From Planctomycetota bacterium (lineage in GTDB: Bacteria; Planctomycetota; UBA1135; UBA2386): 64,000 nucleotides of DNA. A program made the position numbers and the translations under genes. Below are positions 5,352-7,547 of the stretch, piece by piece. The DNA is taken from contig JALORC010000080.1 in assembly GCA_025459175.1 (NCBI GenBank), positions 443 to 64,442 of the forward strand, written 5' to 3'. The notes beneath the pieces were generated by a model that was given only the letters and a program-made list of their open reading frames with translations, ran no database searches and was not told the origin of the DNA. Every line of letters begins with the position of its first letter. Position 1 is the stretch's first letter.

Positions 5352-5615
5352 TCAGTTGCGCGATGGTCGGGGCGGGCTTGCTTCGTCGTCGTCGTCCTGC
5401 GACCCCATGTCCAGGGCGACCAGCGCCGCCAGGTAGAACGCGGTCTGATCGGGGCGCTCGGCCATGAATTCGCGGGCCACCGCGACGAACTCGCGGAAGC
5501 GGATCAGCCCGCCCTCGCCGCGGCCGAGCAGGCGGTTGCCGAAATCGATCGCGTGCGGAGTGGCGAGCCGTCGCAGCGAGGCGCGGGCGAGGGCAGGTGG
5601 GGACGGGTGATGCAT
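5352..5615 (-). CDS. Hypothetical small protein (87 aa), last ORF of the selenoprotein operon
   Basis: The ORF lies 108 nt downstream of the glycosyltransferase on the same strand. The sequence ...HAIDFGNRLLGRGEGGLIRFREFVAVAREFMAERPDQTAFYLAALVALDM... is not shadow-like in composition. No motif recognised and no clear RBS. Confidence 0.3.
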   Translation of the reverse strand: MHHPSPPALARASLRRLATPHAIDFGNRLLGRGEGGLIRFREFVAVAREFMAERPDQTAFYLAALVALDMGSQDDDDEASPPRPSRN

Positions 5616-5723
5616 GGGGCTGTCGCTTGGTCCTTCGCGGCCACACCGGGCCGCAGGACTTAGTGCGCGACCCGGGGCCGGCCGGGCGTGGATTTTCCGT
5701 GGCGAGGCGCGAGCTCCGCGTGG

Positions 5724-6701
5724 TCAGCGAGGCGGCAACACGCCGAGCTCGGTCAGCAGGGCGGCCAGCGCCGCGCGTTCGCGCGCCGGCGCCACCATCG
5801 GCTGCAGCTGCCGCGTGCGTTCGAGCAGCTGCGCGTAGAACCCCGGATCCTCGGCGCTGCGCCGCCACAGGGCCGCCAGGGCCGCGGCATCGCCGGGCGG
5901 GAACCGTCCCGGCCAGTCGGCACCGAGCAGGCCGAGGTTGCCGGGCACCGCAGTGGCGAGCAACGGGGTGCCGGCGGCGATCGCCTCGGAGACGACGTTG
6001 GCGCCGCCTTCGGCCGCGGACGGCACGATGCACAGGTGGCTGCTCGCCAGCAGCCGTCGCGCCGCGGTGCGCGGCAGTTCGCCGAGCCAGCGGGCGCGAG
6101 GATCGGCGGCGACGGCGGCACGCACCGCGGCGGTGGTCGCCGCTTCCAGCGGACTGCCCGCCAGCAGCAGCTCGCAACGCAGCTCGGCCGGCAGCAGGCG
6201 CAGTGCTTCGAGCGCCAGCAGCGGGGCTTTCACCGGGCGCAGGTGCGCCAGCACGCAGGCCCGGCAGCCGGCGGCGCGAGCGCTCCGGAACGCGGTCGCC
6301 GACTGCACGATCGTGCGTGCCTTGGCCCGCAGGAAGCCGGGGATCTGCACGATGGCGTCGGGCTGCAGGGCCACGATGGCACTGGCGCGCTCGAGCGCGG
6401 CCTGCGCCTGCGGGTCCGGCGTGAACTCCGGATAGACGTCGGTGCCGGCCAGCAGCACGACCACGCGCAGGCCTCGCAGCGCGGCCGCGGCGGCCGCCAC
6501 GCTGGCGGCGCTCTTCTGCGCGTGGATCGCGACCAGCAGTTCGCACGGTTCGCCTCGCCACTGTTGCACGAGACGCGGGCGCAAGCCGAGGCTGCGCAGG
6601 TGCGCCGCCCAGCGCAGCGCGGTGATGCGATTGCCATTGCGGCTGCCGCGGGCCGCCGGGGTGACCAGGAGCACGCGCGCGGCCGCGCCGGGCGGACTCA
6701 C
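5724..6701 (-). CDS. GT-B fold glycosyltransferase (family 1/4-like), possibly SenB/TIGR04348-like
   Basis: ORF 5724..6773 is trimmed to GTG 6701, which overlaps the stop of the upstream selenoprotein gene (GTGA). N-terminus: [42 protein letters not shown]...[12 protein letters not shown]. C-terminal half ...LLLAGSPLE...[27 protein letters not shown]... is typical of GT1/GT4 enzymes. The GNRxTAxRWA N-terminal pattern resembles the TIGR04348/SenB selenosugar-synthase family as I recall it; this is not verified. Confidence 0.8.
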   Translation of the reverse strand: [325 protein letters not shown]

Positions 6702-6928
6702 CGTTCCTGCAGTTGGCTCAGGATCTGCTCGGCCTCCGGGAAGCGATCGCCGTCGCGATGTCGCTTGTCCCACAGCAGCCTGCCGTCGACGGTGACGACG
6801 AAGTCCCCGCGGCCACCGGGCTTCTTGTCGACGACGGCGCGCGGATGCACCCGCTGGATCGCGGCGGCCAGACCGGTCGCCTTGGGCAGGTAGTTTCAGA
6901 CCACGCAGTATTCGATCGTCACGCGCAT
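6698..6928 (-). CDS. SelW/Rdx-family selenoprotein (76 aa) with in-frame UGA = selenocysteine at codon 11
   Basis: Not in the ORF track because of the in-frame TGA at 6896-6898. Reverse-strand translation from ATG 6928: MRVTIEYCVV-U(TGA)-NYLPKATGLAAAIQRVHPRAVVDKKPGGRGDFVVTVDGRLLWDKRHRDGDRFPEAEQILSQLQER-stop (6698-6700). It aligns along its full length with the SelW/Rdx pattern: a beta1 strand, then a CxxU/CxxC redox motif, later GxFxVxVxGxLxxxK. Compare mammalian SelW VRVVYCGAUGYKSKY...[20 protein letters not shown]. A SECIS-like hairpin follows the UGA. Confidence 0.8.
6863..6881 (-). promoter_or_regulatory. Candidate bacterial SECIS hairpin
   Basis: Starting 14 nt 3' of the UGA, the mRNA reads GGCG-A-CC[GGUCU]GG-C-CGCC. 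That gives 6 G-C pairs with one A/C mismatch and a 5-nt apical loop beginning GGU. The loop resembles the GGUC-containing apical loop of E. coli fdhF SECIS at a comparable distance from the UGA. Folded by eye only. Confidence 0.5.
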
Positions 6929-6991
6929 GGCGGCGAGTCTACGGCGCGGAACTGGCTGGGACCAACGATCGCCTCGCCGGCGCGCTCGGGG

Positions 6992-7387
6992 TCAGCCTCG
7001 CGGGCGTCGGCCGGCGGCGATCGCCAGCAAAAGCCAGCCGATCAGGAACGCCACCCCGCCGAACGGGGTCACCGCACCGAGCCATCGCAGCCCGGTCCAC
7101 GTCATCGCGTACAACGAGCCGCTGAACAGCAGGATGCCCGCGACGAAGCTCCAGCCGGCCGCGGTCGTGCGGTGGCCCTGGCCGGCCAGCGCGCCGCAGC
7201 CGAGCAACGCCAGCGCGTGGTACATCTGGTAGCGCGCCCCGGTCTCGAACGTCACCAGGGCGGCGGCGTCGTAGTGGGCCTTCATGCCGTGCGCGGCGAA
7301 GGCGCCGAGTCCCACCGCGAGCCCGGCCAGCAGGGCGCCCAGGCGCAGGAACGGGGACCCGGAGCGGGGCGGCTCGATGTCGTGCAT
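6992..7387 (-). CDS. DUF423 family membrane protein (YgdD/TMEM256-like)
   Basis: 131 aa with about four hydrophobic helices. Motifs ...GLGAFAAHGMKAH...ETGARYQMYHALALL...LLFSGSLY... match my recollection of DUF423. Confidence 0.85.
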   Translation of the reverse strand: MHDIEPPRSGSPFLRLGALLAGLAVGLGAFAAHGMKAHYDAAALVTFETGARYQMYHALALLGCGALAGQGHRTTAAGWSFVAGILLFSGSLYAMTWTGLRWLGAVTPFGGVAFLIGWLLLAIAAGRRPRG

Positions 7388-7418
7388 CCGCCCATGCTAC
7401 GGGCCCCCTGGGCTCGGG

Positions 7419-7547
7419 TCAGCGGCAGTGGCGGACCGGCGGTCGGAAGCAGTGGCCGCCGCCGCGGTGGTGGTGGAAGTGGCAGGCGGCGAGGCTGGCA
7501 CCGAGCAGCGCCAGCACGAACCAACGGAACGAACGTCGCATCGTCAT
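7419..7547 (-). CDS. Small His/Cys-rich lipoprotein-like peptide (42 aa)
   Basis: ATG 7547 is preceded by GGAGG 7 nt upstream (reverse strand GGAGGCAATCCCATG). Sequence: MTMRRSFRWFVLALLGASLAAC-HFHHHRGGGHCFRPPVRHCR. It has a signal peptide with a lipobox-like LAAC. The 21-residue mature part carries 6 His and 3 Cys. The track shows it only as the tail of a 110-aa ORF. Confidence 0.5.
   Translation of the reverse strand: MTMRRSFRWFVLALLGASLAACHFHHHRGGGHCFRPPVRHCR

Follow-up and report, generated by a model that had tools for sequence, protein, structure and literature searches.

To our knowledge, the selenosugar synthase SenB has only two known uses, in the synthesis of selenoneine and of ovoselenol, both of which hand the sugar to an iron enzyme, and every characterised SenB clusters with an iron-dependent enzyme that forms a carbon-selenium bond, either SenA or OvsA. 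We likewise know of no described function or fixed partner for bacterial SelW-like/Rdx selenoproteins. In the paper that reported the discovery of SenB, only 827 of 2,353 sequences of the TIGR04348 family lay in senABC clusters, and thus most of the family is without an assigned role. The ovoselenol (ovs) senBC cassette is a case of a SenB-type synthase outside selenoneine synthesis, and its genes may be scattered (PMC11030361); it depends on the iron enzyme OvsA together with OvsM and occurs mostly in gamma-proteobacteria. Among the enzymes nearest to SenB in structure are MshA and BshA, which produce low-molecular-weight thiols (PMC10702425).

Here we describe a SenB-family gene in a different setting, found in a Planctomycetota bacterium (UBA1135; UBA2386). 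The whole stretch of DNA analysed, referred to as the window, comprises 64,000 nt of contig JALORC010000080.1 (GCA_025459175.1, positions 443-64,442). It belongs to a clade set of 11 distinct loci, covering 181 kb including the 64 kb window, and 76 other SenB loci served as the comparison set. Throughout the clade loci, this SenB subfamily of uncultured Planctomycetota is always next to a SelW-like selenoprotein and never next to SenA or SenC, an arrangement that points to an undescribed use of selenosugar.

The five-gene block and its selenoprotein

The first-pass annotation had placed five genes on the minus strand, and all five open reading frames were found at the claimed positions, spanning 7547-5352. 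The idea of spurious ORFs was rejected because of the protein-level conservation of all five. The block begins with a 42-aa peptide (7419..7547), predicted to be a lipoprotein precursor with the lipobox LAAC, in which a putative signal peptide precedes a Cys/His-rich mature part of 21 aa (CHFHHHRGGGHCFRPPVRHCR); the full sequence is MTMRRSFRWFVLALLGASLAAC followed by HFHHHRGGGHCFRPPVRHCR. It matched no family apart from the signal peptide. The pattern signal-AC-H[FY]H...P.V.HC(R) is common to four loci (L001, L002, L003 and L087), and gene calling placed small ORFs of 44-52 aa at the corresponding position of L087 and L094. The second gene (6992..7387, minus strand) encodes a small inner-membrane protein of 131 aa of the DUF423 (YgdD/UPF0382) type, which matches PF04241 with 95.7 bits (cutoff 25; E 2e-27). 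Of the 9 clade loci that extend far enough upstream, 8 have this gene; L008 has a response regulator/HD-GYP gene in its place.

The SelW-like gene (6698..6928), the glycosyltransferase gene (5724..6701) and ORF87 (5352..5615) follow on the same strand. The stop codon of the SelW-like gene and the start codon of the glycosyltransferase gene overlap as GTGA at 6701-6698, and the remaining intergenic gaps in the block are 31, 63 and 108 nt. ORF87 encodes a clade-specific protein of 87 aa with three predicted helices and an acidic tail ending in PSxN, for which no family was found in Pfam or NCBIfam. Its 103 homologues, none of which has a Pfam domain, are all unnamed or called 'hypothetical protein', and their taxon names, where given, are all Planctomycetes or Planctomycetota with the exception of one plain 'bacterium'. 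An AF2 model of ORF87 (mean pLDDT 82.6) had no structural match in the PDB at E < 2, the best being E 2.1. ARAGORN found no tRNA in the 64 kb window, and Rfam was without a match both in 5000-8000, with E-values up to 1 admitted, and over the whole window at gathering thresholds. Neither sigma-70-like sites nor minus-strand terminators were detected by a scan that is uninformative in this GC-rich phylum.

The Rdx/SelW-like protein (76 aa, CVVU motif) matches PF10262 with 61.2 bits (cutoff 22.6) and TIGR02174 with 51.9 bits (cutoff 34.2), and resembles other bacterial members of these families in its N-terminal CxxU, its length of about 75 aa, its thioredoxin-like character and its UGA followed by a hairpin. 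That the gene encodes a real selenoprotein, as first proposed, is borne out by its orthologues. The Sec codon UGA, an in-frame TGA at 6898-6896 of the minus strand, is at the same codon in 9 of 9 orthologues recovered from the 11 clade loci; these are 56-70% identical in amino acid sequence, and the reading frame is conserved on both sides of the UGA. The UGA is also retained in a SelW-like relative at another locus (L090). Gene callers cut the SelW-like gene down to 50 aa, and a search with the protein was of limited reach, its 26 matches being mostly fragments that end after the UGA.

A SECIS-like hairpin (6863..6881, minus strand) begins 14 nt past the UGA; its stem is 7 bp long and its loop reads GGUCU. 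When 8 sequences were aligned, 89% of cells were paired and 2 pairs showed compensatory changes, compared to only 20-63% paired when the 3′ partner was slid by 1-3 columns as a control. Seven of the 8 sequences have GGUCU or AGUCU as the loop and L009 has AGUUU; the loop resembles that of the E. coli fdhF SECIS. The stem in the window itself contains a single A.C mismatch and, by folding energy, is no more stable than shuffled sequences, thus the hairpin is backed by the comparison across orthologues and not by folding energy.

Membership of the glycosyltransferase in the SenB family

The 325-aa GT-B/GT4 glycosyltransferase had been likened to the TIGR04348 (SenB) family, and this assignment held against the profile, where the protein narrowly passed the curated cutoff of 300 with 302.6 bits over profile positions 1-309 of 310; it also matches PF00534. 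Ordinary GT4 identity was rejected, as NF038229, the next-best family, has a cutoff of 400 and gave 123 bits. Three crystal structures of SenB (8FBX, 8JJQ and 8K5U) are homologous to the protein with E of about 1e-52, and the protein aligns in full length with SenB of Variovorax paradoxus (8FBX, E 7e-53; also 8JJQ) at about 40% identity, sharing its family, length, GT-B architecture and EGGA(H/N)V motif. Residues whose importance in SenB was shown by mutagenesis include N20, T23, H58, T85, D86, R155, K158, E231 and E239 (PMC10891094), and each of these nine is kept in 99-100% of the 120 clade members compared. In its own numbering the window protein has N24, T27, K158, E231 and E239, with E231 in the EGGAxV motif.

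In comparison with the V. paradoxus enzyme, the window protein falls into a separate clade, which is monophyletic (40/40, NJ tree), specific to Planctomycetota and represented by at least 120 protein clusters in metagenomes. The members of this clade score 276-312 bits on the family model, so that some of them fall under the cutoff, whereas SenBs linked to SenA score 384-388 bits. Several clade members carry the NCBI-sourced name 'selenoneine biosynthesis selenosugar synthase SenB', a label which is probably too specific.

The clade also differs from V. paradoxus SenB in the selenophosphate pocket. Four of its six residues (N20, H58, T85 and R155) are kept, and the other two are substituted, R61K in 98% and T83A in 90% of the clade; L57V and Y263W are further systematic changes in the acceptor pocket or N-terminal domain. 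Such changes could be taken to mean that the enzyme no longer uses selenophosphate, and instead glycosylates another nucleophile, such as a sulfur compound or the selenolate or thiolate group in the neighbouring CxxU protein (Se- or S-glycosylation of a protein). The acceptors of GT-B enzymes bind the variable N-terminal domain (PMC10702425), and the tightly linked SelW-like protein would be a candidate acceptor. We give this explanation little credence, since most of the pocket is retained and the acceptor pocket of SenB is narrow and hydrophilic (PMC10891094). Moreover, K158, for which a role in hydrolysing the Se-P bond has been proposed and which is needed only with a phosphorylated acceptor (PMC10891094), is conserved in 99% of the clade. 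Because this residue is specific to Se-P cleavage, selenophosphate is probably still the acceptor, as far as residue conservation can tell.

Gene neighbourhood in the clade loci

A further 10 distinct loci have these genes in identical order, with a glycosyltransferase 52-62% identical to that of the window, and the block is therefore more than a chance arrangement. The SelW-like gene with its UGA was seen in 9 of 9 clade loci where the sequence is present, and ORF87 lies directly downstream of the glycosyltransferase gene in 11 of 11. These two and the glycosyltransferase make up the conserved core, with the DUF423 and lipopeptide genes usually upstream. In comparison, SenA was adjacent in 60 of the 76 other SenB loci, and none of these had a SelW-like gene or ORF87. 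The first-pass annotation had reported SenA and SenC as missing from the window, and tblastn agreed, with no SenA, SenC/SelD or EgtD homologue in the 64 kb. The same search over the 181 kb of clade loci gave 0 of 11 for SenA, 0 of 11 for SelD/SenC and no EgtD homologue in the window or the 10 other loci. Thus, unlike a sen or ovs cluster, in which SenB accompanies SenA or OvsA, EgtD or OvsM, and usually SelD/SenC, the clade loci offer a selenoprotein, DUF423 and ORF87 as neighbours, and no partner of the OvsA or OvsM kind, on which ovs depends, was seen in these 181 kb. The SelW-glycosyltransferase arrangement had been called undescribed, and our literature search turned up no paper on it. Five SenB-like loci without SenA (L018, L026, L036, L038 and L040) had no common theme in their ORF listings.

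The gene-order conservation has to be read together with the flanks, since the neighbouring beta-lactamase/esterase, DUF1501 (77-84% identical) and PSCyt2/PSD1 genes are largely syntenic too, and it therefore reflects in part shared descent within one Planctomycetota lineage. This leaves room for a dispersed pathway, in which an ordinary SenB supplies a SenA- or OvsA-type enzyme whose gene lies at another chromosomal site, for the synthesis of selenoneine or ovoselenol, and the SelW-like gene is a neighbour only through a chance gene order passed on by descent, with no mechanistic link. The catalytic residues are those of SenB, and a close Sec-containing SelW relative is found without the glycosyltransferase, beside Band_7 and MarR genes (L090), which sets it apart from the orthologue group consistently found beside a selenium-transferring enzyme. 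In some strains the ovs genes lie apart on the chromosome (PMC11030361), and SelD is commonly unlinked, SenC being near in only 6 of the 76 canonical loci. Hence SenA, OvsA and SelD could lie elsewhere in the genome. Against this, SenA is adjacent in most other SenB loci and in none of the 11 clade loci across 181 kb, the clade branches apart from the rest with scores on the SenB model that are lower by about 80 bits, and the SelW-glycosyltransferase-ORF87 core stays together even where the upstream flank (L008, HD-GYP regulator) or the downstream flank (L094, secretin) has been replaced. Chance adjacency of two selenium-related genes is also unlikely, at about 1% by a rough estimate. We consider the dispersed pathway possible but rather unlikely.

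A methyltransferase gene of about 0.7 kb, matched in NCBIfam by generic class I families alone and weakly similar to arsenite/UbiE types, lies on the opposite strand between the SelW-like and glycosyltransferase genes in 5 of the 11 loci. Its presence there can be counted in favour of an accidental adjacency, and it also means that the two genes need not be co-transcribed. The GTGA overlap had been read as hard-wired translational coupling, and this part of the first-pass annotation was not borne out in that form: the overlap is particular to the window, spacers in relatives are roughly 10-50 nt (by eye from translations), and coupling in general is contradicted by the intervening methyltransferase gene. 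A related explanation is regulatory, with the UGA at codon 11 acting as a selenium gauge, so that successful Sec insertion would permit expression of the glycosyltransferase and ORF87 through the overlap or through relief of polarity, and selenium would go to sugar only when plentiful. It would suit the overlap in the window, the short gaps between genes of one strand in L001-L003, L008 and L088, and the early position of the UGA, about 200 nt upstream of the glycosyltransferase start. It is an improbable explanation of the locus, for besides the two objections to coupling, the start region of the glycosyltransferase gene folds no better than shuffled sequences (z = 0.07) and shows no sign of an occluding structure, and an AGGA motif 4 nt upstream of the GTG makes independent initiation possible.

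A possible selenosugar module

Family membership, residue conservation, Sec coding and the neighbourhood counts are observations, whereas the substrate, the product and the roles of the accompanying genes are inferred. On this footing the block probably forms a selenosugar module able to function with no SenA-type partner, and a distinct selenosugar pathway in these Planctomycetota is plausible. The explanation we lean towards, with somewhat less than even confidence, is that the clade is a Planctomycetota offshoot of SenB that retains SenB chemistry, with the selenosugar as end product or carrier and the SelW-like protein as its redox partner. In this scheme the glycosyltransferase would convert UDP-sugar and selenophosphate to a 1-seleno-sugar, the Se-P bond being hydrolysed via the lysine that corresponds to K158 and is conserved. 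A SelD encoded outside the locus would supply the selenophosphate; SelD must exist in the organism because UGA is decoded as selenocysteine. The selenosugar would then be the end product or a selenium carrier, that is, a low-molecular-weight selenol, and the CxxU protein would keep it reduced or swap Se-Se or Se-S bonds with it.

The selenol analogy is chemically natural in view of the thiol-making relatives of SenB (PMC10702425). MshA and BshA, with mycoredoxin and bacilliredoxin, offer a parallel, in that a GT4 enzyme makes a redox cofactor based on a sugar and a small redoxin of the CxxC type services this cofactor, except that here the sugar would carry selenium at C1 and the redoxin role of the SelW-like protein would follow by analogy alone. 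A fuller version, in which the selenosugar is no intermediate but a working low-molecular-weight selenol or a selenium store or carrier, methylated where the methyltransferase is present, the SelW-like protein is a dedicated redoxin and the early Sec-UGA gates the synthase on selenium supply, seems to us doubtful. DUF423, ORF87 and the lipopeptide may contribute to the module in roles of their own.

The clade is widespread in metagenomes, with at least 120 glycosyltransferase and 103 ORF87 clusters, and thus provides a concrete case of SenB in another context, and for the first time a bacterial SelW-like selenoprotein has a consistent genomic partner. If the fuller version is true, it would represent a third selenosugar route, one without a SenA-type enzyme, and the SelW-like protein would be the first of its kind in bacteria with a defined function.

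The gene block and its selenoprotein

All five reverse-strand genes with short gaps that the first-pass annotation had described were recovered on the minus strand of the window (71% G+C), between 7547 and 5352. They comprise a 42-aa lipopeptide precursor (7547-7419), in which a signal peptide and the lipobox LAAC are followed by CHFHHHRGGGHCFRPPVRHCR, a DUF423 membrane protein (7387-6992; PF04241, E 2e-27), a Rdx/SelW-like gene of 76 codons (6928-6698) whose CVVU motif is encoded with an in-frame TGA (6898-6896), a 325-aa glycosyltransferase, hereafter GT (6701-5724; TIGR04348 and PF00534), and ORF87, of 87 aa and without a family match (5615-5352). 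The SelW stop overlaps the GT start (GTGA), and the remaining gaps are 31, 63 and 108 nt. Gene calls made independently in a JGI metagenome that holds this contig also gave a GT of 325 aa. The lipopeptide type is kept in relatives, with signal peptide, lipobox Cys, H[FY]H start and ...HC(R) end.

The block is flanked by a convergent DUF1501 gene (3875-5329, plus), after which a PSCyt2/PSD1 gene comes next, and by a divergent gene (7664-9586, plus) for a secreted 640-aa fusion of a beta-lactamase-fold serine hydrolase (N-terminal half) and a short-chain PHA/PHB depolymerase-type esterase (C-terminal half; NF050058, E 1e-40). Most relatives share the synteny of this divergent gene with the cassette. 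Elsewhere the window encodes a Fic-domain protein (33690-34958, plus), a tryptophan-halogenase-like FAD enzyme (39047-40645, plus) and a CotH kinase-family protein (47245-49287, minus). No selenium-related gene was found among ten large window ORFs sampled by Pfam, and no tRNA or Rfam match in the window.

The SelW-like protein scored 61 bits against PF10262 and 51.9 bits against TIGR02174 (cutoff 34.2). The 9 orthologues recovered from 11 distinct loci of the GT clade described below, 56-70% identical in amino acids, all have their TGA at one shared codon of MxVTIEYC(V/A)VU, with the reading frame conserved before and after it. A hairpin with a 7-bp stem and a GGUCU loop starts 14 nt past the UGA (6881-6863); its loop, which resembles the one in the fdhF SECIS of E. 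coli, reads GGUCU or AGUCU in 7 of 8 aligned sequences and AGUUU in the other (L009). Across these 8 sequences 89% of hairpin cells were paired, compared to 20-63% with the partner slid 1-3 columns, two pairs showed compensatory changes, and the observed covariation score was reached by 5 of 500 shuffles. Since the window stem has one A.C mismatch and is no more stable than shuffled sequence, it is this comparative evidence that carries the argument for the hairpin. Judged from these alignments, the gene is a real selenoprotein gene. The JGI gene caller stopped at the UGA, which shortened the product to a 50-aa fragment starting at an internal GTG past the UGA (6698-6850, minus; also L005:10538-10690), and SelW-like database homologues are mostly such post-UGA fragments of 41-64 aa.

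For ORF87, 103 homologues about 85 aa long were found, unnamed or called 'hypothetical protein' throughout and, where a taxon is named, from Planctomycetes/Planctomycetota, the single exception being labelled only 'bacterium'. None of the 103 has a Pfam domain. The predicted structure suggests three helices and an acidic tail (pLDDT 82.6), and a search with this model found no structural relative in the PDB.

An outlying member of the SenB family

GT matched TIGR04348 ('selenosugar synthase SenB') with 302.6 bits over profile positions 1-309 of 310, passing the curated cutoff of 300 bits, while the second-best family reached 123 bits against a cutoff of 400, and it was alignable end to end with SenB crystal structures (8FBX, E 7e-53). 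According to the Nat Commun 2024 structure paper (PMC10891094), SenB binds the sugar through N20, T23 and E231, UDP through E239 and K158, and selenophosphate in a pocket of N20, H58, R61, T83, T85 and R155, with K158 starting hydrolysis of the Se-P bond. We aligned 120 close GT homologues with 57 other SenBs. In the Planctomycetota-specific subfamily containing GT (the clade), N20, T23, H58, T85, D86, R155, K158, E231 and E239 were 99-100% conserved, R61 was replaced by K in 98% and T83 by A in 90%, and L57V and Y263W were further clade-specific substitutions. A changed acceptor, to which the two pocket substitutions might point, appears improbable; the conservation of K158 speaks for selenophosphate as the retained acceptor.

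GT homologues at least 51% identical were monophyletic (40/40, NJ tree) and came from Planctomycetota MAGs wherever the source name gives a taxon, with no cultured host seen among the hits. Clade scores against TIGR04348 (276-312 bits, compared to 384-388 for SenA-adjacent SenBs) straddle the cutoff, and public names are therefore mixed between 'SenB', 'TIGR04348 family glycosyltransferase' and plain 'glycosyltransferase'. For example, P0010, P0023 and P0113 are named 'selenoneine biosynthesis selenosugar synthase SenB', and P0016, P0066, P0071 and P0105 'glycosyltransferase'. Naming selenoneine is probably more specific than the clade warrants. By score and residues, the SenB likeness noticed in the first pass is borne out, GT being an outlying family member.

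Gene neighbourhoods with and without SenA

Loci were collected by a genome-collection scan, a metagenome scan with family alignment and single-protein look-ups, and were searched by tblastn with seeds including SenA, SenC and EgtD from the canonical sen cluster L004 (Casimicrobiaceae), and for SelW-like genes by HMM on six-frame translations with TGA read as Cys. Among clade loci (11 distinct, 181 kb, GT 52-62% identical), the SelW-like gene was present in all 9 with upstream sequence on the contig, ORF87 in 11 of 11 and DUF423 in 8 of 9, and none of the three occurred at any of 76 SenB-like loci outside the clade (GT no more than 51% identical). SenA, in comparison, was found at 60 and SenC/SelD at 6 of those 76 loci, and neither at any of the 11 clade loci, including the window, where their absence had been remarked; EgtD was likewise absent (0/11, tblastn, 181 kb). 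Thus, the SelW association is specific to the clade, in which the SenA linkage dominant elsewhere is lost. Since the iron-enzyme partner that defines sen and ovs clusters was searched for and not found nearby, the window locus falls outside the sen and ovs clusters.

The canonical cluster is complete in L004:6614-12638, where senA, senB and senC are neighbours of egtD and of a further EgtB-like gene. Five loci with non-clade SenB-like genes (L018, L026, L036, L038 and L040; 42-45% identical, GT at about 6001-6950) have full 6 kb flanks without SenA and may be further, unassigned contexts for the family; in L018 a SelD/SenC homologue is the sole partner adjoining the SenB-like gene.

In most clade loci the block is syntenic over beta-lactamase, lipopeptide, DUF423, SelW, GT, ORF87, DUF1501 and PSCyt2, with DUF1501 77-84% identical, so that the conserved order of SelW, GT and DUF423 partly reflects common ancestry within one lineage. 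The core outlasts replacement of its flanks, upstream in L008 (SelW preceded by an HD-GYP response regulator, DUF423 absent) and downstream in L094 (a secretin gene in place of DUF1501). A dispersed sen or ovs pathway, with a SelW adjacency of no mechanistic meaning, would suit the shared descent; given the missing SenA linkage and the persisting core, we consider it rather unlikely.

The first pass had called the SelW-GT pair hard-wired, and the association is conserved in the clade. The GTGA overlap is confined to the window, spacers elsewhere being about 10-50 nt (read by eye from translations), and in 5 of 11 clade loci, though not in the window, the two are separated by an opposite-strand gene (about 0.7 kb) for a class I SAM methyltransferase that has a lipoprotein-type signal and generic family matches only (L087:9346-10023 (-), L009:505-1161, L007:4-276, L039:3-422 and L094:4596-5285, its start codon overlapping the GT start in L094). 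Translational coupling of SelW and GT is therefore impossible in these five loci, where the two probably have separate transcripts. That the Sec-UGA links them mainly by regulation, as the overlap in the window would allow, is very doubtful in view of these split loci. A close Sec-containing SelW relative (MHVTIEYCVVUNY...) with the same GGUCU-loop hairpin past the UGA lies at L090:5908-6132 (+), and likewise in L091-L093; two Band_7/SPFH genes precede it and a MarR gene follows, and the 6 kb flanks of L090 contain no SenB-like GT.

A possible selenosugar pathway

The neighbourhood pattern of the clade is exclusive, and family membership, catalytic residues and Sec coding are established. Sec decoding requires SelD, and selenophosphate should therefore be available to GT. 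GT would convert UDP-sugar and selenophosphate to a 1-seleno-sugar. As the linked genes include no SenA/OvsA-type enzyme, this sugar is probably not an intermediate but an end product or a carrier of selenium. Oxidation readily turns selenosugars into diselenides, the form in which the product of SenB was isolated; the CxxU thioredoxin-fold protein would be an obvious candidate to reduce such a diselenide or exchange with it. We tentatively favour this reading, a selenosugar as end product or carrier with the SelW-like protein as its redox partner, as possible though not quite probable. The methyltransferase, where present, could methylate the selenol or selenosugar, and DUF423 could, as guesswork, transport the product or the lipopeptide; the E. 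coli DUF423 member YgdD is reported to have been studied, together with SbmA and MdtM, as a route for non-lytic peptides at the inner membrane (bioRxiv 10.64898/2026.09.04.749474; PMC8801401).

In structure SenB is a neighbour of MshA and BshA, builders of sugar-based thiols, which gives a selenol plus redoxin pair a precedent by analogy. Full-text searches with 'TIGR04348' returned SenB papers only, and none tying the family to SelW-like proteins, Rdx, DUF423 or Planctomycetota; the SenB discovery paper left about 1,500 TIGR04348 sequences outside senABC clusters undiscussed. The genes form a genuine selenium cassette, widespread and as yet uncharacterised, whose functional link we infer, and it makes two questions testable: the role of SenB without SenA, and that of bacterial SelW-like proteins.
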